Shown here in pieces: positions 25,187 through 35,530 of a DNA stretch of 64,000 nucleotides. A model generated the notes under the pieces. That model was not told the DNA's origin and searched no databases. It saw only the letters and a program-made list of their open reading frames with translations. The DNA is from an uncultured Gemella sp. (lineage in GTDB: Bacteria; Bacillota; Bacilli; Staphylococcales; Gemellaceae), in NCBI RefSeq assembly GCF_963519265.1, contig NZ_CAUQNQ010000003.1, positions 7,642 to 71,641 on the forward strand, read 5' to 3'. The position numbers and the translations under genes were made by a program. The stretch's first letter is position 1. Every line of letters begins with the position of its first letter.

Positions 25187-26218
25187 TTATTCTTCTTTGA
25201 ACTTCACACCATTATCTTTCAGTTTTTTGATAATACCTACTCCAATACCATCTAGTTTTTTCAGTTCCTTTTCTGTATAACATTCGATAATTTCTTTATT
25301 ATACAATTCTGCATCGATAATCTTGTTCAATTGTTTTTCCATACCTTTGAAGACAGGATCTTCTTTCATATCTTCTTTGGACACAGACTTACGTCCTTCA
25401 ACAATCAGGCTTTGTTTTTTCTCTATATCTTCTCTATAGAATTTCTCTAATAATTCGTAATGATATTTATTAGTCAAATATTCTTTAGCAATGCCCACTG
25501 AGAATTGCATTTCAAAATATTTTTCCTTATTAGCACCTTTCACATTACCTGGATTTCCTTCTAAATAATCTAGAACTTTATTGAATCCGCCTTTAAAAAT
25601 ATCACCCGTGCACTTATTAAGTTTTTTAAGTTTAGTCATATAATAATGTGCTTCATCAAATCTTTCTTGATTTATGCTAAAGATACTTAACAATAGCAAT
25701 GTCGCTTCTGAATCTTCATAGTCAAAACAATCAATATGATCCATCAATAAACTTTCTCTATCTAGGCGAACATACATAAGTGTCAAGAGATCTATCACCT
25801 CATGGAAATCACTTGGATTCGCCATCAACATAAGTTCATATAGTTTCGCGGCTTCTTCATTCATACCAGCCTTACTATAATATTCAGCCAGAACATCCGC
25901 TATTATCATCTGTTCAGCATCTTCATCATTATCTGAGTACATGATATCCTCTTCCAACTCTACAGCCCTTTCTAGAGCATCTTTATTTTCCTCATGAAGT
26001 TCACGTAAGGCGCTAATTTTATCAACGACACTCATATTCCCTTCATCTATCGCATCAACAAGATCGCTAAGAGAAGCATCTATCTCATAACCTTCGTCGA
26101 CTAAATTGTAAATACGTTCAAATACCTCGGTAGCCTCTTCCTTACTAGAAAAATGCTTCCCTTCAGTTTTCAAAAACTCTTTAAGCAATATTTCGAATTC
26201 TCTATCATGTTTTACCAT
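25187..26218 (-). CDS. Acidic helical (TPR-like) protein with C-terminal helix-hairpin-helix
   Basis: C-terminus TEKELKKLDGIGVGIIKKLKDNGVKF. Confidence 0.65.
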   Translation of the reverse strand: MVKHDREFEILLKEFLKTEGKHFSSKEEATEVFERIYNLVDEGYEIDASLSDLVDAIDEGNMSVVDKISALRELHEENKDALERAVELEEDIMYSDNDEDAEQMIIADVLAEYYSKAGMNEEAAKLYELMLMANPSDFHEVIDLLTLMYVRLDRESLLMDHIDCFDYEDSEATLLLLSIFSINQERFDEAHYYMTKLKKLNKCTGDIFKGGFNKVLDYLEGNPGNVKGANKEKYFEMQFSVGIAKEYLTNKYHYELLEKFYREDIEKKQSLIVEGRKSVSKEDMKEDPVFKGMEKQLNKIIDAELYNKEIIECYTEKELKKLDGIGVGIIKKLKDNGVKFKEE

Positions 26219-27363
26219 AAGTCATCCTCCATAAGATCCATCTGGATATCAAACTCACTATCATCAGCGAACATTACACCGTTTAAATGTAGGTTTTTGA
26301 TAGTCCCCTTACCTAAACCTTTTATTTTAAGAAATTCTGACTTCGTAATCTTCAAGAAATCCTCTTTTGTTAATAAAAAGTTCTCATGCATAATTTTTAA
26401 TTCCGTATCTCTAATTGCCATAAACGATTTATCTCGTTTCATATCAGCAACCGTTATTTCCTTGCGGTCGGCATACTTATCTAATTCATCTCCAATTACA
26501 TATTCACTTTCTCTCACATGCATAAGGAAGTCGAAATAATACTCTCTATTTATAAAATAATCAAATTTCATAACCGTATTAAGAGCATCTAGATACTTAC
26601 AATCATCATCCGTGCTAAATTCAATCAGCTTAGGATTAGCAATTCTATCTAATACATCCGAAATGTATTTATTATTTTTTATCAATTTATTATAGAATGC
26701 AACTGCCTCTTTCTCCTCACCTTGCATCAAGTGATAGAAAACTTTTGATAATAAAATTACATCATCATTTTTACCACGTTTATTCATAAGTTTATAGTAA
26801 TGGTTAAGCATTGTGAAATCATTTAATATAAGACTAGCCACGATAAAATTATGATACATCGGCACTAAAACTTCATCAGCCATATCTAAAGCCATATAAA
26901 AAGGTTTATATGCATCCCAAACTTTATTGTAGAGCTTATTACCTAAATAAAATTCCGCAAGGTGGTGGCAAACTATTAGATGAAGATAGTTAATCGGAAA
27001 TAGTTTACCCTCGACATAACCTTCTTCAAAGGTGTATACTTCATCTTTTAGGCGTAGTAATGCTAATTCTATTTCATATTCTGTACAATCTTTACTAACA
27101 ATTTTCCAGACTCTAGCATCCACATTATACTTAGATAAAGCTATTGCATCTTCAATATAAATCGCATATTTAGAATCATCAATATTCTCAATAAACTCCG
27201 CAAAAAGCCTCATCGATTCTTTAAAATCAGATTCAATCTCTTTAGAAGTAAATCTAATCTTACCATAACCTTGATTAAGTTTAAAGTCTCTAGATGTTTT
27301 ATTCCTAATTCCTGTATATCCTTTTTTATTAACAGGAAATTTTATAATTTTTTTATTATTCAT
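26212..27363 (-). CDS. Helical protein with C-terminal helix-hairpin-helix, paralogue-like to the downstream gene
   Basis: C-terminus TKSEFLKIKGLGKGTIKNLHLNGVMF; RBS AGGAGG; overlaps next gene. Confidence 0.65.
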   Translation of the reverse strand: MNNKKIIKFPVNKKGYTGIRNKTSRDFKLNQGYGKIRFTSKEIESDFKESMRLFAEFIENIDDSKYAIYIEDAIALSKYNVDARVWKIVSKDCTEYEIELALLRLKDEVYTFEEGYVEGKLFPINYLHLIVCHHLAEFYLGNKLYNKVWDAYKPFYMALDMADEVLVPMYHNFIVASLILNDFTMLNHYYKLMNKRGKNDDVILLSKVFYHLMQGEEKEAVAFYNKLIKNNKYISDVLDRIANPKLIEFSTDDDCKYLDALNTVMKFDYFINREYYFDFLMHVRESEYVIGDELDKYADRKEITVADMKRDKSFMAIRDTELKIMHENFLLTKEDFLKITKSEFLKIKGLGKGTIKNLHLNGVMFADDSEFDIQMDLMEDDLW

Positions 27364-27700
27364 GTCTGCCCCTCCTTTTATCTTTATAATAAATATACAA
27401 AATTTACAGCGATTTTATCAATCCTCTTATATATGAAAATCTTTATAAAATTCACTCTTCCTTCAACTTTATTCTACACCAAATTTCAATATAATACAAA
27501 CTTAACAATCAGCAAATCGCCAAATATGAAGAATAAAAAATAATTTATGGTAGTTAACAGAAATAAAAAAACTTATCTCATACTTAATAAGATAAGATTC
27601 TTTATAACTTGACATAGTGACCTATAATGATAAAACAAGGGAAGTAGATAGCCATTTTAGCTCACGACGCACATACTTCACTTGTGTGTAAATATTAGTA

Positions 27701-27766
27701 TAAAAAGCCAATTGAACTGAATCTTCAATTGGCTTTCGTGGTGGAATTTGATAGACATCATTCACT
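27701..27766 (-). ncRNA. Putative antisense antitoxin RNA, module A
   Basis: Terminator AAAAAGCCAATTGAA-ctgaatc-TTCAATTGGCTTT (27702-27736) followed by GTGGTGGAATTTGATAGACAT, which matches the toxin A start region. Confidence 0.55.
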
Positions 27767-27865
27767 TCTTATAGTCTATCCCATGTTTTAGCTATTGACC
27801 CAGCGTAAATCATCTTCACTTATGTCTAATATCAATTGATACCTTGCCCGAAAGGAGGTGGTTGA

Positions 27866-27916
27866 ATGGAGATAGACATTACCCAAATTCTTGTTAATTA
27901 TTATCAGAAATACTAA
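27866..27916 (+). pseudogene. Frameshifted type I toxin, module A
   Basis: AAAGGAGGTG RBS, MEIDITQILVN then a 1-nt loss relative to module C; the shifted frame continues LLSEILILI. Confidence 0.65.
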
Positions 27917-28234
27917 TCCTAATATATAATATTATCCTCTTAATTTATATCAACTTACTTTTAGACACAGCTCATAAATTCCACTCTATACGTGATTTCC
28001 ACCACTAATCTGATTAAAATCAAAATTAGAGCTTATATTAAAAAGTATTATTACTTCCTATTCACTTGTCTATACTTTATCATATCTTTCTATATCATGT
28101 CAAACAACTTTCATTTAAAATCACTATTCTTTTTTTCTTGATAACTACCTTTTTTATTTTCCGTTTACATAATCTTAAAAATGCAATTTTAATCTCAACA
28201 TCAATAAGAAAACCTTTTCTAACATGACTTCTAG

Positions 28235-28243
28235 TGCTATAAT
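28235..28243 (+). promoter_or_regulatory. Extended -10 promoter of toxin B
   Basis: TGcTATAAT, conserved in module C at 28680-28688. Confidence 0.7.
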
Positions 28244-28279
28244 AAAGTTAGGCTACTAGCTCCAAAAGGAGGTGGTTGC

Positions 28280-28387
28280 ATGTACGATATAATCGTTCAA
28301 ATTCTTGTTGGACTATTTATAGGAATTATTCTCCTATTTATAGAATATTTTTATTTCCTAAATGATAAAAACAACAAGAAAAGGTAG
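28280..28387 (+). CDS. 35-aa type I toxin-like membrane peptide, module B
   Basis: AAAGGAGGTG RBS; MYDIIVQILVGLFIGIILLFIEYFYFLNDKNNKKR*: one TM helix plus charged tail. Confidence 0.85.
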   Translation: MYDIIVQILVGLFIGIILLFIEYFYFLNDKNNKKR

Positions 28388-28466
28388 CCCTATTTAGGCA
28401 CGACGTACATGTTATTCACTCATGTATGAATATCTATTCTCATACTAAGTAGTATGTTAATACATA

Positions 28467-28538
28467 TAAAAAAGCAACTGAATGGCGTTTCAGTTGCTTT
28501 TCGTGGTCTCATGTGAATATAATCGTCCAATTCACTTA
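28467..28538 (-). ncRNA. Putative antisense antitoxin RNA, module B (about 70 nt)
   Basis: Minus-strand TTGACA (28573-28568)-18 bp-TAGAAT (28549-28544); ends at bidirectional terminator 28468-28501; carries a copy of the toxin B start region. Confidence 0.75.
28468..28501. terminator. Bidirectional terminator, module B
   Basis: AAAAAAGCAACTGAA-tggcgt-TTCAGTTGCTTTT. Confidence 0.85.
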
Positions 28539-28724
28539 TATATATTCTACCACATACCTTTTCTTGTTGTCAATTAATTCGAAGGCATATCCTCTATCCC
28601 TTCTCCTATTTACATAATCTTAAAAATCTAACTTTAGTTTTAACATTAATAAGAAAACCTTTTCTAAAATAATTTCTAGTGCTATAATAAAGGTAGGCTA
28701 CTGCCCCGGAAGGGAGGTGTTGGT

Positions 28725-28826
28725 ATGAATACTAGCATTTCACAAATTCTTGTGAATCTATTATCCGGAGTTATTCTTCTGATAATAGAATATTATTTCC
28801 TAAAAGATAACAACAAGAAAAAGTAG
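28725..28826 (+). CDS. 33-aa type I toxin-like membrane peptide, module C
   Basis: GGGAGGTG RBS; MNTSISQILVNLLSGVILLIIEYYFLKDNNKKK*; paralogue of module B. Confidence 0.85.
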   Translation: MNTSISQILVNLLSGVILLIIEYYFLKDNNKKK

Positions 28827-28883
28827 CCATTTTAGGACACGATGCATACTCTTCACTTTGTATGTGAATATTAAATATTAATA

Positions 28884-28953
28884 TAAAAAGCCAATTGAAA
28901 TAGCACTTCAATTGGCTTTCGTGTTGGAATGTACTAGCATTTCACATTCACTT
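28884..28953 (-). ncRNA. Putative antisense antitoxin RNA, module C (about 70 nt)
   Basis: Minus-strand TTGACA (28989-28984)-18 bp-TAGAAT (28965-28960); ends at terminator 28885-28919; carries a copy of the toxin C start region. Confidence 0.75.
28885..28919. terminator. Bidirectional terminator, module C
   Basis: AAAAAGCCAATTGAA-atagcac-TTCAATTGGCTTT. Confidence 0.85.
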
Positions 28954-29064
28954 TCCTATATTCTATCACATACCTTTTCTTGTTGTCAATTAATTCGAAG
29001 AGCTGGATATAATAAAATTCGGAAAGGGTAGAAAAAAAATAAATTTCTTTAAACTATAAATTGC

Positions 29065-29657
29065 GGGTCTATAATAAATACGGTTGATAATAAATATCAG
29101 CCGTATTTAAATTTATAAAAAAATAGAAAAGAATGTAAAATTCCTCTATAATTTAAGTATGAGCAAAAAATCAAGAAAGGAAATTTACATTCATATGTGT
29201 AATTATAGCAAATCTCTTAAAATAACGCTACAAATAACTGACGAAAATATAAAAATTCTAGATAAAACAGAGGAAATTGAAATAAATGGTTGTAAGCATC
29301 TCGTTTATTACGGAGTATTGGAAGCTTCATCTAACTCTTGTCCTTATTGTAAAGAATGTAAGATAACTAATAACGGTCCTTTAGAAGGAATTAACAACAA
29401 AATTAAAGTTATTAAGCGTATTTCTTATGGTTATAGATCTTTTAGTAACTTTAAAGCTAAAATACTCCTTGTATTCAGCTTATTTATACCTTCTGAAACT
29501 AACAAAAAACCTAGATATTCGAAAGAAGAGCGCCAAGATATTCTCGATAAAAAGAAAGAAATAAAACTAAAACGAAAAAATAGAAAAAAAGCTATACTAC
29601 TTAATATAGCATAGCTTTCTCCTAATTTTCTAAATCAACCGAATTTGACAAAGAACC
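29065..29657 (+). mobile_element. Internally deleted ISL3-family element
   Basis: Imperfect terminal IRs GGGTCTATAATAAATACGGTTGAT and (rc) GGTTCTTTGTCAAATTCGGTTGAT enclosing a transposase remnant. Confidence 0.8.
29159..29614 (+). pseudogene. ISL3 transposase remnant (N-terminal zinc finger joined to C-terminus)
   Basis: CPYC directly joined to TNNGPLEGINNKIKVIKRISYGYRSFSNF; the central DDE region is missing. Confidence 0.85.
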
Positions 29658-29819
29658 GCAAAATGCTGCCTAGATTTCTAGAGTGATTTTTTCCCATGCC
29701 CCGAACTTGACAAAGAGCCAAAATTTGTTACTTAATTCTTGCCGACGAAAAAATTTTTTTAATTTTTCATTGTAATTTAATTTTTTGGAATTTATTTTCC
29801 GTAATAATTTGACTTTAAC

Positions 29820-29885
29820 AGAAGCTACAAAACCCTTGTAATTACTCGACTATTTGACTGTGTCATTATTATGACGCGAAACCCA
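29820..29885. repeat. 66-bp direct repeat, left copy
   Basis: 58/66 identical to 35636-35701 by manual alignment; core TGTCATTATTATGAC palindrome. Confidence 0.9.
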
Positions 29886-29898
29886 GACGATGCGTCCA

Positions 29899-30525
29899 CT
29901 ATAGCTCATTTCTTTTTTTTTGCAAAAACATAATACATTTTAATATTTTTTCAATATTTTTATCATCGGAATATTTATTGTAAAATCCATACATATTCAT
30001 GAGCAAAAAATCCAATCTTCTAATTTCTTCATCCAATTTCAATTTTCTATAGAAGCTACAAATAATATTATCTGTAATATATTTTTGCTCCGTCCTAATA
30101 TAATACTCCTCATCTCTATAAAATAATTCTGTTATGCTTTCATCATCAACATTAAATCTTGGAGAATATGCTTCACTCCATATAAAATCTTTTTTTGCTC
30201 TATTACATTTTTTGCATGAGAGAACCAAATTATTTATTTTGCCAGCATTTATAAAATCTTCATTGAATGATGATTCACAAATAAAATGATCTACTTCAAA
30301 TAATTCACAACTTATCACATCTGTTGTGATACCACAATAAGCACATTTATTATTATATATATTCCTAAATTGCTTATTATATTCACTATCTCTTTTATTT
30401 ATTTGATTGTATATTATTTTTACCTTAGGATGTTCTCTTTTTATTCTCTCTTCTAAAGCTTTTTTTTCATCAATAATGTTCTTTTTGGGAACTTCATATA
30501 CTGTATTTCTATAATCATTCTTCAT
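29899..30525 (-). CDS. HNH endonuclease
   Basis: CAYC..FEVDHF..NNLVLSCKKCNRAK zinc-finger HNH motif. Confidence 0.88.
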   Translation of the reverse strand: MKNDYRNTVYEVPKKNIIDEKKALEERIKREHPKVKIIYNQINKRDSEYNKQFRNIYNNKCAYCGITTDVISCELFEVDHFICESSFNEDFINAGKINNLVLSCKKCNRAKKDFIWSEAYSPRFNVDDESITELFYRDEEYYIRTEQKYITDNIICSFYRKLKLDEEIRRLDFLLMNMYGFYNKYSDDKNIEKILKCIMFLQKKRNEL

Positions 30526-31111
30526 AATTTTTTCTCATTTCTTCAAAAGCTTTAATAAGATTATCAATATCCATCTTAGTTAAATTATCATAATTTGACA
30601 CTCCATTTATTGAATTCTCCATTTTTTCAAATAGGAATTTCTCAACATAATTTTTCATGGAAATATTTTTTAAAATATTTCTATTTAAAATTATATTTTG
30701 GGTGGCATTAACTATTCCTTCATTCCAATTATCTTGAAAAAATGAATCCACACCACAAAGATACGTATTAGAATTATATTTTTTTAATGTACTATATTCC
30801 ATCTTTTCTTGATATTGAGTAATTACTATTATTTCTTTAAAAGGAAAAATTTTTTTAATTATCAAGCCAAGCTCTTCCCCAGAAATTTTCTTATCTTGTA
30901 CGTTTCCATTTTCAAAAAGCATTGAATCCAAAAACAATATATCAGCTTTTTGAATTTCATCATTCTCAAGCAAGTCTTCGTAGGAATATTTATTTTCAAA
31001 TTTCAATTCTGAATATTTATATTCAGCCTTATCATTTGAATATGAATTTAAATATTTCGAAACATACAAATCAATTTTGTCATCTACATAAAGCATAGTT
31101 ATTAATTCCAT
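30515..31111 (-). CDS. Response-regulator receiver-domain protein without a recognisable DNA-binding domain
   Basis: MLYVDD, DILFLD (phospho-acceptor position), SGEEL, IIVIT; overlaps both neighbours. Confidence 0.72.
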   Translation of the reverse strand: MELITMLYVDDKIDLYVSKYLNSYSNDKAEYKYSELKFENKYSYEDLLENDEIQKADILFLDSMLFENGNVQDKKISGEELGLIIKKIFPFKEIIVITQYQEKMEYSTLKKYNSNTYLCGVDSFFQDNWNEGIVNATQNIILNRNILKNISMKNYVEKFLFEKMENSINGVSNYDNLTKMDIDNLIKAFEEMRKNYEE

Positions 31112-33239
31112 TTAAAATCGTTTCCTCCATTTCAAAACTAAATTTAAACCCACTCTCTCCTGAAATAGAAAGAATTTTTCCTTTTTGTAAATTAATTGTA
31201 TTGTTAATTATCCACATCCCAAGACCGTGTCCATTTGTTCTGCTTGTTTCATGCGGTTCTAAAATAATTCTTGGGTTATCTAAATATTTTTTTGACAATC
31301 CCTTCCCATCATCGTAATACAATATTTTCAGCTTATTATTATCTCTACTAATTACAATTTTTATTCTTAATTCATTAGCTTCGCTGTTTTGTTGAACACT
31401 ATTTAGTATTAAATTATCAAATATAGTGTAGAATGTGTCTTTTGATATATTAAATTCTACTTTATCATCTATACACGTTTCTATATGTAACCAAGAATAA
31501 TCTTTTTTCCAACCTTCTAATATTTGATTTAAAATTTCTTTTATATTTAAACATTCTGCAAAAAATTGATTTTTTTCTACTTTTTCTAAAATCGCATCAA
31601 TAAATCTCAGTATTTTTTTTACTGCAATATGATTATTTTCTAACAAACCTGGTATATCTTCACACGCAATTTTTCTATTCTCTGGACTATTAACAATTTC
31701 CCAAACCCTATATTTTTTTAAAGCATTAACGATGTCATCATAGGATGGTTCCATTTGATTTCTGTCGTTATTTATTTCATGTGCTATTGATGTAGCCTTC
31801 ATTCCAGATGTTGCTAGAGCATTTAAAATTCTAACATCATATTTATACCTTGCTTTCTCTTGCTCAAATTTTTTACTATCTTGTTTAAATAATTTTAGTT
31901 CATTAATAAGCTTATCCTGTTCACTTTTATTTAAATTTTCTATCTTTTTAGGATTTTTAACAATTTCATCTGATATTTTTTTTATAGGCGCTTCTTCACC
32001 TTTATTTTTTTCATTTATTTTTCGAATTATTTTTTGTCTATATCTTTCAAATTCTTTGATACCAGTTAATATAATTTGAACGAACAATTTATAGTATATA
32101 TTTTCATCTAATCCTTGTCTATTCATAAGATCTTGCAATACTATATTTTGTTGCTTATCAATCAATACATATCCAGACATTTGATTTTCTCTAACTCTCC
32201 AAGCCCCTGTGGGATGTGATGCCGCTGCTGGAGATTTTCTTGTTCTTTTCCCTAATCCTAACCAATCTCTTTCACCTTCAAACGATGATATGCTAAAAGC
32301 ATTTCTATAAAGAATCACCCCACTATCAACACTTTCATCAGTACTTAAATATTTATATAAAAATTTTTCTTTATCTTGCTTTGTTGCGTTTAAGTTGAAA
32401 AATAAGTTTACAGAGAATCCCCCAAGTTCCTCTAACTCAGAAAATAATTCTTCTCCTCGCATCTCAGCAATTTCATTACCTTCAAATTCATCAAAAATAT
32501 TCACTTCACTTTTATATGTATTTAAATCCATTTCTGGGCAATACTTTATGGCTTCACTATCAAACTCGTCTGAAAGCACTAATACAGACAGTATTCCTTT
32601 ATTATATTTTAGTACAATATTCGCTCTACAATTTTTTCCAGGTTCAGGTTTTGGAAAATGCAACTTCACAAATTCATCGTATTCATTAGCTATAATCCGT
32701 ATCTTCATAGCTGTATCATTATATGTTTTCTCAAGGTACTTATTTAATTTTTCAATTCTCCTAAGAGTCCATTTTTTTCTAAGATTGTTTATTACTATAC
32801 AAGTACCTTTATTTTCTATGCTAGAATCTAAATCTAATGTTGATTTATCCCAATCTGTTTTCCAAACGACTCCATCTTTTTGTGCCTTTTTACTATACAA
32901 TCGTATATTTTCACCTAATCTAGACAAGGCAAAACGACCTACTCCTTTCGCTCCAGCTTGCACTCTAACATTATTATTTGTATCAATGAAATCATATCCT
33001 TTACTGCTTTTTCCAATATGCATCCAGTGTTTCTTTATATCCTCTGAATCCATGCCATCTCCATTATCAGTTATTCTCAGCGTTGTTTTATCAATAAACT
33101 CTAATGTAACAATCAAAGCATTCGCATCATATGCATTTTTAACCAATTCTAAAACTGCCGCCTCATCATTGGAAAAGTTTTGTACGCCTAAAAGCTCTGC
33201 AATTGTACTATCTTCAATACTATACTTAAGATATTCCAT
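31080..33239 (-). CDS. GHKL (MORC/MutL-like) ATPase fused to a histidine kinase
   Basis: N-terminal ELVKNAYDA, DNGDGM, GAKGVGRFA; C-terminal IAHEINN, FDNLILNS, DDGKGL, GHGLGMWI; probable start ATG 33239 after GAGGAGG; no TM segment. Confidence 0.88.
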   Translation of the reverse strand: MEYLKYSIEDSTIAELLGVQNFSNDEAAVLELVKNAYDANALIVTLEFIDKTTLRITDNGDGMDSEDIKKHWMHIGKSSKGYDFIDTNNNVRVQAGAKGVGRFALSRLGENIRLYSKKAQKDGVVWKTDWDKSTLDLDSSIENKGTCIVINNLRKKWTLRRIEKLNKYLEKTYNDTAMKIRIIANEYDEFVKLHFPKPEPGKNCRANIVLKYNKGILSVLVLSDEFDSEAIKYCPEMDLNTYKSEVNIFDEFEGNEIAEMRGEELFSELEELGGFSVNLFFNLNATKQDKEKFLYKYLSTDESVDSGVILYRNAFSISSFEGERDWLGLGKRTRKSPAAASHPTGAWRVRENQMSGYVLIDKQQNIVLQDLMNRQGLDENIYYKLFVQIILTGIKEFERYRQKIIRKINEKNKGEEAPIKKISDEIVKNPKKIENLNKSEQDKLINELKLFKQDSKKFEQEKARYKYDVRILNALATSGMKATSIAHEINNDRNQMEPSYDDIVNALKKYRVWEIVNSPENRKIACEDIPGLLENNHIAVKKILRFIDAILEKVEKNQFFAECLNIKEILNQILEGWKKDYSWLHIETCIDDKVEFNISKDTFYTIFDNLILNSVQQNSEANELRIKIVISRDNNKLKILYYDDGKGLSKKYLDNPRIILEPHETSRTNGHGLGMWIINNTINLQKGKILSISGESGFKFSFEMEETILNGINNYALCR

Positions 33240-33249
33240 ATTTCCTCCT

Positions 33250-34692
33250 CTAAAAATTAAATTCTTCAATATCCTTCGATGTAATTCTCAATGAACTTCC
33301 ACTAATATTTATCCCCACCTTCTTTACATAGTCCATGAAATTTTCACTTTCAAGAATTCTTTTTGCAAAATCCAAATTATATTCTTGGTTTTCATCTCTT
33401 AAGGAAATATACATTCCTGCATATGGAATATAATCCTCCTCTAGCCTATATATACAGACTTTATCTGTGATAATTGTTGATATAAGAAGTTTTTCGCATT
33501 TAATTCCTGAAAGTGCTTGCGTTCTTCCATATTCAAACCACTTTGATCTTTTGTCAGATTTTCTTTCTGTTAATTCTCTTTTGAATTGGCTCAAATAGAA
33601 AAAAGTACCAGGATATAAATTTGCAAATTCATTTTCTTCATATTTTATTAACCGATTATTAATATATTTATATGGAAAAATAATTTTTTCAACTTTACCA
33701 TACCTTATAGTTCTTGGTGTTGCAGTTGGCATTACTGCACCTTTTTCAATCATGAAATTTCCAACTTTATAATATTCCTCTATTTCATCATACATATTTT
33801 CATTAATTACATATGCTTTATTTAACAAAGTTGCTATCACATGTGAAACTTTGAAATAATCGCCAAATCGGTTGTTTCCTATATTAAACTCATTAGAAAA
33901 AATCCATTTCCCTTTCATTATTTTTTTATTAATGGATAATCTATTATTACAACACATGTCGAAATATTTAATTTTTTTACTAATATAGTTTTTATCAAAA
34001 ATTATAATAGCTGACTTAACTAATGCATCATCAAATATCTTTTCTTTTGTATAATCTTTTATGACAACAATATTCTCACTCATAAATTCTCTAAGTTTAT
34101 CACCAAAAACCGTTTTAAATATACTACTCGGTATTAAATAAGACATTTTACCTTCATTTGATAACAACTTTATACTATGTTCTATAAATGCATAGCAATA
34201 GTCAAATTTCCCTTGTCTACATGTTTCGTATTTCTCCTTAATAAATGTTCTTTCCTCTTTAGACAAATCACTATAAGTTATATAAGGCGGATTCCCTACT
34301 ATAAAATCGAATTGTGTTTTTATTTCACTTTTTAGATAGTCTTCATTATAAATTTTCCAATTAACATCCTGTATTTCATTTTCTTCCGCAATTAAGTTTA
34401 AGTTATATATGCACTTTTCAAATTGTTTTTTGTCAATTTCAAACCCAAAAATATTACGTTCTAAACCATCTTTTATTTTTTTGTTAGAATATTTAAGTTT
34501 TACTGCTTCTTCAATATATCTTTTAACTATTTCAACAAGAATATTACCATCACCACATGAATTCTCTAATACTGTTTTATTTATTATATTTCTACAATAT
34601 CCAACCGAATCCAGCAACTCATTAACGTAATTTGATGGAGTAAAAATTTGACATTTATTCGCTATATTTTTTTTATTTAATTTTTTCATCAT
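33250..34692 (-). CDS. N6-adenine DNA methyltransferase (Eco57I/TaqI-like, gamma class)
   Basis: IFTP, motif I LENSCGDGNIL, motif IV IVGNPPY, C-terminal KWFEYGRTQ. Confidence 0.9.
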   Translation of the reverse strand: MMKKLNKKNIANKCQIFTPSNYVNELLDSVGYCRNIINKTVLENSCGDGNILVEIVKRYIEEAVKLKYSNKKIKDGLERNIFGFEIDKKQFEKCIYNLNLIAEENEIQDVNWKIYNEDYLKSEIKTQFDFIVGNPPYITYSDLSKEERTFIKEKYETCRQGKFDYCYAFIEHSIKLLSNEGKMSYLIPSSIFKTVFGDKLREFMSENIVVIKDYTKEKIFDDALVKSAIIIFDKNYISKKIKYFDMCCNNRLSINKKIMKGKWIFSNEFNIGNNRFGDYFKVSHVIATLLNKAYVINENMYDEIEEYYKVGNFMIEKGAVMPTATPRTIRYGKVEKIIFPYKYINNRLIKYEENEFANLYPGTFFYLSQFKRELTERKSDKRSKWFEYGRTQALSGIKCEKLLISTIITDKVCIYRLEEDYIPYAGMYISLRDENQEYNLDFAKRILESENFMDYVKKVGINISGSSLRITSKDIEEFNF

Positions 34693-34696
34693 TAAA

Positions 34697-35530
34697 TTAC
34701 TCCATTTTTTTTATTACTTCATTATTTACTTTTTCCAAAGAAATAATTTGCTTTTGAGCAAGCTTTCTAAGTTCTATCATTCTTTCTTTTTGGTCCGTAC
34801 CTTTTCCAATTAGGATTGCATTATAACTTTCCATATTTACAAGTACCAATAACTCATTCAGACTTGCATAGTCTCTCATATTACCCTTTAAATCTGGATT
34901 TTCTTCACACCACTGTTTTACTCTTTTATTAAATAAAGCAACATTTAGCATATCTTCTTCACTTTCGTATTTATAGGATAACTGTTCGTTGGTAAGATCC
35001 TTTAAGAGATATTCTTTGAGTGCATCTATATGGATTTTGTAGTTAATCTTTGAAATTTCCCTCTTCAAGTTCCAACCTAATGATAGTTTTGAATTCTCAT
35101 CTAATTTAAGTCTTCTGTAATCTTGAATTACATACATCTTAAATTCAGCAGAAATCCATGAAGCAAATTCAAAGACAATATCTGTATGTGCAAATGCACC
35201 TCCATATCTTCCACCTTTTGAGATAATTCCGATTGCTTCTGTTTTCTCTACCCATTTCTCAGGAGACAATGTAAAGGGATTATATCCAACTTCCGATTTA
35301 ATTCGGTCGAATTCGACCGAATTGAAATTCATGTTGTTTAAGCTTTCCCATAAACCAAGAAATTCAATTGTATCTTTTCTTCTCATCCAATTTTTAATTA
35401 CATCACTTGGTTCATCACTTTTATACCTTGCAATATCCGTTAGACTTATATAGTCGTTTTTAAAATCTTCAGTATAAATTTGAATAGCAAAACCTTTTGC
35501 TTCAATCATATCTTTTTTTACCTTAGACAT
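34697..35530 (-). CDS. KilA-N domain DNA-binding protein
   Basis: DYISLTDIARYK..IKNWMR..TIEFLGLWE, GRYGGAFAH..FEFASWIS. Confidence 0.88.
   Translation of the reverse strand: MSKVKKDMIEAKGFAIQIYTEDFKNDYISLTDIARYKSDEPSDVIKNWMRRKDTIEFLGLWESLNNMNFNSVEFDRIKSEVGYNPFTLSPEKWVEKTEAIGIISKGGRYGGAFAHTDIVFEFASWISAEFKMYVIQDYRRLKLDENSKLSLGWNLKREISKINYKIHIDALKEYLLKDLTNEQLSYKYESEEDMLNVALFNKRVKQWCEENPDLKGNMRDYASLNELLVLVNMESYNAILIGKGTDQKERMIELRKLAQKQIISLEKVNNEVIKKME

Follow-up and report, generated by a model that had tools for sequence, protein, structure and literature searches.

A probable chromosomal array of divergent par-type (Fst) toxin-antitoxin modules in an uncultured Gemella species

Introduction

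What is encoded by a repetitive 1.8-kilobase (kb) stretch of Gemella DNA in which no open reading frame (ORF) of at least 100 amino acids (aa) can be found? The stretch lies between the end of an ORF at 27363 and the remnant of an ISL3 transposase gene that begins at 29159. These positions refer to the window, that is, the entire 64,000 nucleotides (nt) of DNA analysed here (uncultured Gemella sp., RefSeq assembly GCF_963519265.1, contig NZ_CAUQNQ010000003.1, positions 7,642 to 71,641 of the forward strand). An earlier sequence-only reading had proposed that it holds type I toxin-antitoxin modules in tandem, laid out like the par locus of plasmid pAD1 (RNA I/RNA II, toxin Fst), but with a non-canonical toxin. 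The analysis described here leads to a similar answer. With a probability that we put at about 0.78, the stretch holds par-type (Fst/RNA I-RNA II) modules of type I, arrayed on the chromosome, whose clade has so far been seen only in Gemella. This answer builds on the anatomy of the units, their conservation, the selection acting on their coding sequence, covariation in their RNA helices and cognate-specific complementarity, all of which were observed directly.

Results

Two intact units with a conserved short gene

A unit of about 420 nt is present four times in the 1.8-kb stretch. Of these copies, B (28164-28584) and C (28609-29000) have stayed intact, with the toxin on the plus strand; two decayed copies lie to their left. 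B and C are direct repeats of each other, with 74% identity over 215 nt in addition to other common blocks (D1-D7). The boxes, ORFs, hairpins, terminators and promoters that the sequence-only reading had listed for B and C were all found where it had placed them.

Each intact unit contains one short ORF on the plus strand. The ORF of unit B (28280-28387) encodes 35 aa, namely a hydrophobic helix followed by the tail NDKNNKKR, and the ORF of unit C (28725-28826) encodes 33 aa. Gemella peptides of this type follow the pattern M-x(4-6)-QILV-[N/G/E]-L-x-x-G-[IV]-[IV]-[LF]-L-x-I-E-Y-(F)-Y-[FL]-L with a lysine-rich tail, and their sequences read as a single hydrophobic transmembrane helix with a charged C-terminus. 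For 26 distinct ORF sequences the median ratio of nonsynonymous to synonymous substitution rates (dN/dS) is 0.15, and dN is smaller than dS in 108 of 108 pairs with dS above 0.05, these pairs not being independent of each other. Variable sites favour the third codon position; the counts over the three positions are 11/5/22 for the 33-aa ORFs and 12/4/14 for the 35-aa ORFs. The direction of this signal is unambiguous, and the ORF is a gene under purifying selection.

The predicted toxin mRNA

A predicted promoter with an extended -10 box, TGcTATAAT, precedes both ORFs on the plus strand (28235-28243 in B, 28680-28688 in C). The predicted transcription start site is at or next to G28251 in unit B and near G28696 in unit C. 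Transcripts starting there and ending at the terminator would have a length of about 255 nt in B (28251-28506, plus strand) and of about 229 nt in C (28696-28924, plus strand), with the same domains in both. Conservation was assessed with a full-length alignment of 34 units from 18 genomes. The -10 box and its 7-nt distance to GGCTAC (at 28251 in B and 28696 in C) are conserved in 34 of 34 units, and so are both promoters and the spacing between the Shine-Dalgarno (SD) sequence and the ATG.

In the predicted mRNA of unit B the 5′ end, GGCUACU, pairs with 28383-28389 across the stop codon, using the GTAGCC at 28384-28389. The equivalent helix of unit C joins 28696-28702 with 28822-28828 (GTAGCC at 28823-28828). 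The SD sequence lies in a small hairpin, which is CTCC-AAAA-GGAG at 28260-28271 in B and has a CCC/GGG stem in C; both are part of the minimum-free-energy folds. The mRNA of B further contains an inner helix within the ORF, and a hairpin in the 3′ untranslated region (3′UTR) is located at 28404-28428 in B, with the loop UUAUUCACU, and at 28844-28865 in C. The shared, bidirectional terminators correspond to the 13-bp perfect palindromes I15 and I17 (28470-28501 in B, where the terminator spans 28469-28502, and 28887-28919 in C), and on the minus strand the scan called a terminator with its U-run. Both mRNAs fold better than expected for their composition, with z = -7.5 (B) and -7.0 (C) and none of 200 shuffles as good.

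An RNAalifold consensus of 33 predicted mRNAs contains the same elements: the GGCUACU helix between 5′ end and stop codon, the short SD hairpin, an inner helix pairing codons 8-10 with the last sense codons, the 3′UTR hairpin and, after it, the terminator, whose base is extended by CACGA/UCGUG. Base pairs were counted for the first four of these helices in 32 distinct sequences. Standard pairs occupy 97.1% of the cells, compared with 29-46% after a shift of the 3′ partners by 1-3 columns. Both partners changed in eight pairs, and the covariation score was reached by none of 500 shuffles. The helix GGCUACU-AGUAGCC is paired in 99.5% of cells, the SD helix, which is short (two consensus pairs), in 98%. 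Five covarying pairs support the 3′UTR hairpin, the loop of which (UUCACU) is nearly invariant, and three support the terminator.

The predicted antitoxin sRNA is complementary to its own mRNA

On the minus strand both units contain a predicted gene for a convergent small RNA (sRNA). The sRNA of unit B (28466-28537) has a length of about 72 nt, starts with AAGUGAAU and ends in the shared terminator; that of unit C (28884-28953) has about 70 nt. Their promoters, TTGACA-18-TAGAAT, were located by the promoter scan on the minus strand at 28573..28544 (B) and 28989..28960 (C). Among 22 promoter-like sites of the region these two rank highest, each agreeing with the consensus at 11 of 12 positions. 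The fold z-scores are -6.4 (B) and -4.6 (C), with none of 200 shuffles as good. The sRNA overlaps the predicted mRNA at its 3′ side and leaves the ORF free, and the predicted interaction takes place outside the overlap.

This interaction is based on a direct repeat, a feature that goes beyond the sequence-only reading. One copy covers codons 2-7 of the toxin gene (28287-28300 in B, 28730-28744 in C), while the second is located between the terminator and the sRNA start (28517-28530 in B, repeat D18; 28932-28946 in C, repeat D15). The two copies in C are identical at 15 of 15 positions. Since transcription of the sRNA proceeds on the opposite strand, the loop of its 5′ hairpin complements the start region of the cognate mRNA. 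A direct repeat of 12-16 nt exists at this fixed place in 34 of 35 units; its copies co-vary and fall into at least eight sequence types. In the one unit without the repeat a gapped cognate duplex still reaches -25.8 kcal/mol.

Predicted duplexes between cognate sRNAs and mRNAs have an average energy of -26.9 kcal/mol (range -21.3 to -31.7). Non-cognate combinations, in which the variable region of the sRNA differs, average -11.8 kcal/mol (standard deviation 5.0, n = 960), and shuffled sRNA 5′ parts average -7.2 kcal/mol (standard deviation 2.5). For the window itself, the values are -23.7 kcal/mol for the sRNA of B with the mRNA of B and -27.3 kcal/mol for the C pair, against -10.7 and -9.4 kcal/mol for the cross pairs. 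As the cross-pair energies are far weaker than the cognate ones, B and C are predicted to be orthogonal. The AUG lies within the predicted duplex. Moreover, the invariant 5′ end of the sRNA, AAGUGAAU, is perfectly complementary, over at least 6 nt, to the loop of the 3′UTR hairpin in 33 of 33 units, and this complementarity may provide a second contact site.

Another complementarity was set aside. The last codons of the ORF, ACAACAAGAAAAGGTA (28371-28386), complement the spacer of the sRNA promoters perfectly (28555-28570 and 28971-28986). This pairing (I8-I10) is lost in several subtypes of the 34-unit alignment and is probably not a conserved one; no function is proposed for it. A CCTTTTCT box also recurs upstream of the toxin promoter (28211-28220).

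Relation to par at the RNA level

According to the Fst/Ldr review and the paper on T1TAdb, par-like loci are defined by features that were found here. Units B and C have convergent promoter matches, a shared bidirectional terminator and repeats read in opposite directions, as well as an SD stem-loop, a helix at the mRNA 5′ end and an sRNA at the 3′ side that stays off the ORF.

The Rfam model RefB11 (RF02848) aligned over its full length (1-167) with unit B at 26.4 bits (E 0.015) and with unit C at 26.0 bits (E 0.019), the E-values being calculated over all 4227 Rfam families and the gathering score of this model being 54. The alignment is in register for the outer helix, the SD hairpin, the AUG, the inner helix and the 3′ hairpin, and the GGCUACU/AGUAGCC helix falls on the outer helix of RefB11. 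RefB11 and a further model, RefA9 (RF02844), represent sRNAs that are reported to have been mapped on the Enterococcus faecalis plasmids pTEF2 and pTEF1. For a comparison with genuine Fst loci, 251 genomes of Bacilli were searched with Pfam PF13955, and 14 of them matched. RefB11 recognised two of the Fst loci, at 80.9 and 46.8 bits over the Fst ORF, and RefA9 matched at 41.5 bits on the convergent strand. As these matches fall on PF13955 Fst loci, RefB11 and RefA9 describe par RNA I and RNA II. No Fst loci of the staphylococcal or streptococcal type were matched by RefB11. The matches of RefA9 in the Gemella units were rejected as support for the antitoxin, since they cover only the terminator palindrome and lie on the plus strand, hence the wrong one. 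No sequence similarity between the Gemella sRNA and RNA II could be detected.

A search was also made in the opposite direction, with a covariance model (R1) built from 32 Gemella mRNAs, for which unit C scores 193 bits by construction. R1 matched one of 15 Fst loci, L050, over its full length (1456-1634, the same interval that RefB11 recognises) with 32.9 bits and a rough E-value of 7.8e-5. The anatomy of L050 resembles that of the Gemella units: two direct repeats (D2, D3) flank the ATG and codons 4-8 and recur between a bidirectional terminator and the sRNA start, and a -10 box is positioned 7 nt before GGC. The central proposal of the sequence-only reading, a tandem type I array with the par layout, is thus well supported and gains from the unit-specific repeat, the covariation, the model matches in both directions and the anatomy of L050.

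Relation to Fst at the peptide level

A strong match to a described family was sought for the peptides and the RNAs, and none was found at the curated thresholds of Pfam, NCBIfam or Rfam. NCBIfam gave weak matches only, to SA1362_fam (17 bits, cut-off 42) and CLC_0170_fam (15.6 bits, cut-off 30), both below threshold and unrelated. PF13955 had no match in a six-frame search of the genome from which the window stems and none in the 32 Gemella genomes, while Fst peptides recognised by this model are present in sister families of the order. This contrast fits a lineage-specific, diverged version of Fst in Gemella.

A profile alignment of 23 Gemella with 14 Fst peptides (HHalign) gave a probability of 87.2% and a score of 24.7 over 28 ungapped columns. 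None of 200 column shuffles reached this score (mean 7.8, maximum 19.3). The invariant Gly of the Gemella peptides is placed on the Gly of Fst, the residues N, G or E are placed on Pro, and Tyr is placed on Trp in 23 of 23 distinct peptides. The Fst/Ldr review describes the first residue of the xXXXG motif as varying by clade between P, D, S and T. The residue four positions before the invariant Gly in Gemella is N, G or E, none of which is in that list. The same review gives Val at the Trp position of Fst-pAD1, so the signature Trp is not essential. The description of the toxin as non-canonical holds, with Pro and Trp absent and no curated model detecting the peptides; the suggestion of a separate family is at odds with the ungapped alignment to Fst. 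In view of this alignment, of Gly on Gly, of the clade-variable motif and of the dispensable Trp, the peptides are best read as a divergent Fst clade. By these comparisons the system is a branch of Fst apparently absent from annotation and not a wholly new kind of system.

Decayed copies and side observations within the array

The sequence-only reading had recognised a degenerate unit A, which is borne out, and had not separated a fourth, still more reduced copy to its left. This remnant 0 (27634-27800, plus strand; repeat families D4, D5, D6 and I14) consists of a 3′ half only. It keeps the ORF tail, GTAG..AGCC, the 3′UTR hairpin and the terminator palindrome (27704-27736), and it retains an sRNA-like region ending ATTCACTT; the 5′ part of the toxin gene is deleted and the sRNA promoter is degenerate. 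R1 matches it at 27640-27694 with 28.5 bits. Unit A (27800-28114, start approximate, plus strand; D2, D3, I21) has kept the SD sequence and the start region, with an ORF cut to 16 codons (27866-27916), and is matched by R1 at 27846-27998 with 55.6 bits. Its interior is rearranged and includes an inverted fragment, and the promoter scan found a remnant of the sRNA promoter, TTGACA-18-TAAAGT, at 28103..28074. The sequence at 27997-28008 of unit A is an inverted copy of the post-terminator sequence TTCGTGGTGGAA (27735-27746). As this inverted copy lies inside unit A, its decay involved an inversion besides deletions.

The intact units begin with a conserved 19-nt box, TTTACATAATCTTAAAAAT (plus strand, 28164-28182 in B and 28609-28627 in C). 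It precedes the toxin -10 box by about 70 nt and hardly varies among the 34 aligned units, single-copy units included. In the promoter scan it did not qualify as a good sigma-70 promoter. As a candidate second promoter, an upstream TTTACA...TTTAAT box was rejected, since position 2 of its -10 element is not an A and the scan made no call.

Distribution of the module

The genome of the window is a 1.75-Mb assembly with a completeness of 86%. Two further intact units and a remnant lie on another contig of this assembly. The four peptides of this genome were made into a profile, which was searched in six frames against 61 genomes. The module is present in 18 of 32 Gemella genomes, that is, in the window's own and in 17 of 31 other species, and was found in none of 29 other genomes (five from the second genus of the family and 24 from the rest of the order). 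Tandem arrays of two to five copies are common, for example five copies at a spacing of about 405-435 nt (G012), four (G009) and three (G028).

Among 1.84 billion representative proteins the four-peptide profile had eight matches, six of them clearly of the Gemella type, several of which have mis-called starts or result from stop read-through; no Fst peptide was among the matches. The exact peptides of B and C were not found in a collection of 15 billion proteins, and none of the eight related cluster members in the protein collection carries a name. Units B and C had no blastn match in plasmid or phage collections. The ESM Atlas returned only unnamed clusters at 0.77-0.79, which is under the meaningful level. 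A tblastn match in a contig of Candidatus Parabeggiatoa (58% over 24 residues) was taken as chance.

Contig C15 of the window's genome contains an orphan antitoxin gene (L004:1270-1470), in which the 5′ half of the toxin is deleted. It has kept a complete sRNA gene of the B type, with the promoter TTGACA-18-TAGAAT, the B-type recognition sequence and the terminator, and is located directly upstream of an intact C-type unit. As this orphan carries a complete B-type sRNA gene, the B toxin of the window may have two antitoxin genes.

Genomic context

To the left of the array housekeeping genes and two proteins without a family match are found. The latter are encoded by two adjacent ORFs of 343 and 383 aa on the minus strand (25187-27363), for which neither Pfam nor PADLOC gave a match. 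Their ends carry a similar motif, ...G(I/L)G.G.IK.L..NGV.F, which suggests that they are paralogous. The right flank (29159-35530) starts with the ISL3 transposase remnant (29159-29614) and a PtuB-like HNH protein (29899-30525). These are accompanied by a 198-aa protein without an assigned family, a 729-aa protein with two GHKL ATPase domains, an Eco57I-type type II DNA methyltransferase and a KilA-N protein, the last of which matches the PADLOC candidate defence family PDC-S22 (E 1e-119). Judged by these genes, the array is located at the edge of a variable, defence-type region.

Contigs from RNA libraries

Contig pieces with 95-99% identity to the units occur in three RNA-labelled runs from three studies. 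They cover 28372-28516 and 28692-28996 (X1), 28298-28458 (X11) and 28298-28438 (X18, with adapter letters at both ends). A fourth run with such pieces, X2, is labelled as RNA by guess only. The contigs are strandless, carry-over of DNA is possible, and two of the contigs run across terminators; stretches of the units that they leave uncovered carry no meaning. At most, they show that such sequence occurs in RNA libraries, and they are to be taken as a lead only. X11 and X18, from two studies, both start at 28298, just 3′ of the sRNA target site. This position may be a processing or cleavage site in the predicted toxin mRNA, or the agreement may be a coincidence.

Discussion

If the units work like par, an intact unit would give rise to an mRNA of about 230-255 nt for a single-helix membrane peptide of 33-35 aa, and the strong TTGACA/TAGAAT promoter would drive a convergent sRNA of about 70 nt. 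The mRNA would be quiet and probably stable, with its 5′ end paired across the stop codon and its SD sequence held in the small hairpin. The sRNA would overlap the mRNA only at the shared bidirectional terminator and could dock via the complementary terminator loops and/or the 3′UTR loop. Its 5′ loop would pair with the cognate mRNA over the start codon and codons 2-7 and thereby block ribosome entry. Loss of the sRNA would permit synthesis of the peptide and lead to membrane damage. As the units of an array carry different recognition sequences, each sRNA would be expected to control only its own toxin.

Several points weigh against the assignment to par and Fst. That both RNAs are transcribed, that translation is repressed and that the peptide is toxic are all assumptions carried over from the par paradigm. 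The Gemella peptides have neither the Pro of Fst nor the signature Trp, and Pro is reported in the Fst/Ldr review to be essential for toxicity in Fst-pAD1 and Lpt; this is the chief argument against equating the Gemella peptides simply with Fst. Pfam PF13955 did not match the peptides of B and C at E<=10. At the RNA level, the 26 bits obtained with RefB11 are far from its gathering score of 54, and the Rfam model fstAT (RF01797) had no match at E<=10. R1 recognised only one of the 15 Fst loci and found nothing in 150 other genomes of Bacilli (E<=0.01, stricter filters). On the plus strand the terminator is followed by a short U-tract of only 3-4 U, which the scan did not call; a similarly short one is found at the Fst locus L050. 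The helix between 5′ end and stop codon varies on one side only, from G-C to G-U, without a compensatory pair, which is consistent with pairing without proving it. Furthermore, copies from related genomes are not independent, and the covariation and dN/dS counts therefore overstate the number of events.

These points invite other explanations. The toxin might form a separate family, that is, a membrane peptide unrelated to Fst that has adopted, or converged on, a par-like RNA layout. The lack of any match at curated thresholds and the missing Pro and Trp would be expected in that case, the six clear relatives among the 1.84 billion representative proteins are all of the Gemella type with no Fst alongside them, and composition alone can align short hydrophobic peptides. 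However, the ungapped alignment is 28 columns long, with Gly facing Gly and Tyr-Tyr facing Tyr/His-Trp, and its score exceeds those of all 200 shuffles, which kept the composition. The covariance-model matches in both directions span the whole mRNA with the ORF in frame, and the first residue of the motif is known to vary by clade. The absence of canonical Fst from 32 Gemella genomes, with Fst in the sister families, fits replacement by descent. We therefore regard an independent family as unlikely.

That the peptide is an ordinary small membrane protein, for instance a regulator or a subunit, whose expression is tuned by an antisense RNA, is very unlikely in our view. Purifying selection fits any function, toxicity is attributed to the peptide by analogy, and residues reported as essential for Fst toxicity are missing. 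Against it stand features that count as hallmarks of type I toxin loci in the literature: multiple, tandem and patchily distributed copies, decaying copies and orphan sRNA genes, several predicted layers of translational silencing, unit-specific recognition sequences and the position next to a defence island. A third explanation would be that the repeats are non-coding, an array of sRNA genes or a repeat element, with accidental short ORFs. The ORFs are indeed very short, and the region is AT-rich with many spurious ORFs. Yet a dN/dS of 0.15 with dN below dS in every one of the 108 pairs, the third-position bias, an SD sequence and ATG at fixed spacing in 34 of 34 units, and a length and pattern common to 23 distinct peptides make this explanation hardly credible. 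The reading as par-type modules with a divergent Fst toxin is thus the one that we prefer.

A literature search found no report that links Gemella to type I toxin-antitoxin systems or Fst. The genus is not named in the main text of the T1TAdb paper, nor in the main text and eight of the nine supplement files of Fozo 2010. The par/Fst family would thus be extended to a genus for which no earlier report was found. The Gemella loci probably stay unannotated because Pfam, NCBIfam and Rfam all miss them. With at least 12 natural sRNA recognition variants and their matched targets, the units are a resource for studying the specificity of antisense control, and the clade offers a test of whether the proline of PxxxG is truly required in this class of toxins.

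A further idea is speculative, and we consider it rather unlikely. The Gemella clade might be a natural experiment in which both Pro and Trp proved replaceable while the par RNA machinery was kept, with arrays that are diversifying and serve island maintenance or phage defence. If this were true, a different action on the membrane would be possible, as both hallmark residues are replaced, and the orthogonal toxin/sRNA arrays, decaying copies and orphan antitoxins at the edge of a defence island would not be redundant copies.

Comparison with known systems

The Ldr/Rdl systems of enterobacteria, the other branch of the Fst/Ldr group, share with the Gemella units the class of peptide and the occurrence of tandem copies in one intergenic region. 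They differ, according to the review, in being regulated as hok/sok is, by an sRNA on the 5′ side. SprA1/SprA1AS (PepA1) and other staphylococcal Fst homologues belong to the same bacterial order as Gemella and are reported likewise to have an sRNA at the 3′ side that acts outside the overlap. Staphylococcal Fst clades are described in the review as having a variable first motif residue (S/T/P), a likeness to the variability in Gemella. Yet the staphylococcal-type loci L045, L048, L051, L052 and L054 were matched by neither RefB11 nor R1. Going by these model matches, the Gemella units are nearer to the enterococcal than to the staphylococcal type at the RNA level.

The closest resemblance in layout is to par of pAD1 and its homologues. 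Common to both are convergent promoters, a shared bidirectional terminator, direct repeats at the toxin start that are read in opposite directions, an SD hairpin and a helix sequestering the extreme 5′ end. The sRNA has about 65-75 nt and stays off the ORF, and the peptide of 30-35 aa forms a transmembrane helix with a charged tail. Differences concern the peptide, which has N/G/E-xxx-G in place of PxxxG, Tyr in place of Trp and a basic, lysine-rich tail, and also the RNAs. In Gemella the 3′ arm of the 5′ helix overlaps the stop codon, whereas in par it follows the stop, and the invariant sRNA 5′ end is complementary to the loop of the 3′UTR hairpin. Fst repeats are described in the review as poorly conserved and as an explanation for specificity between co-resident systems. 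Such specificity of the recognition repeats has been reported there for pAD1 and EF0409, and the predicted duplex energies suggest the same for units B and C of the Gemella array.

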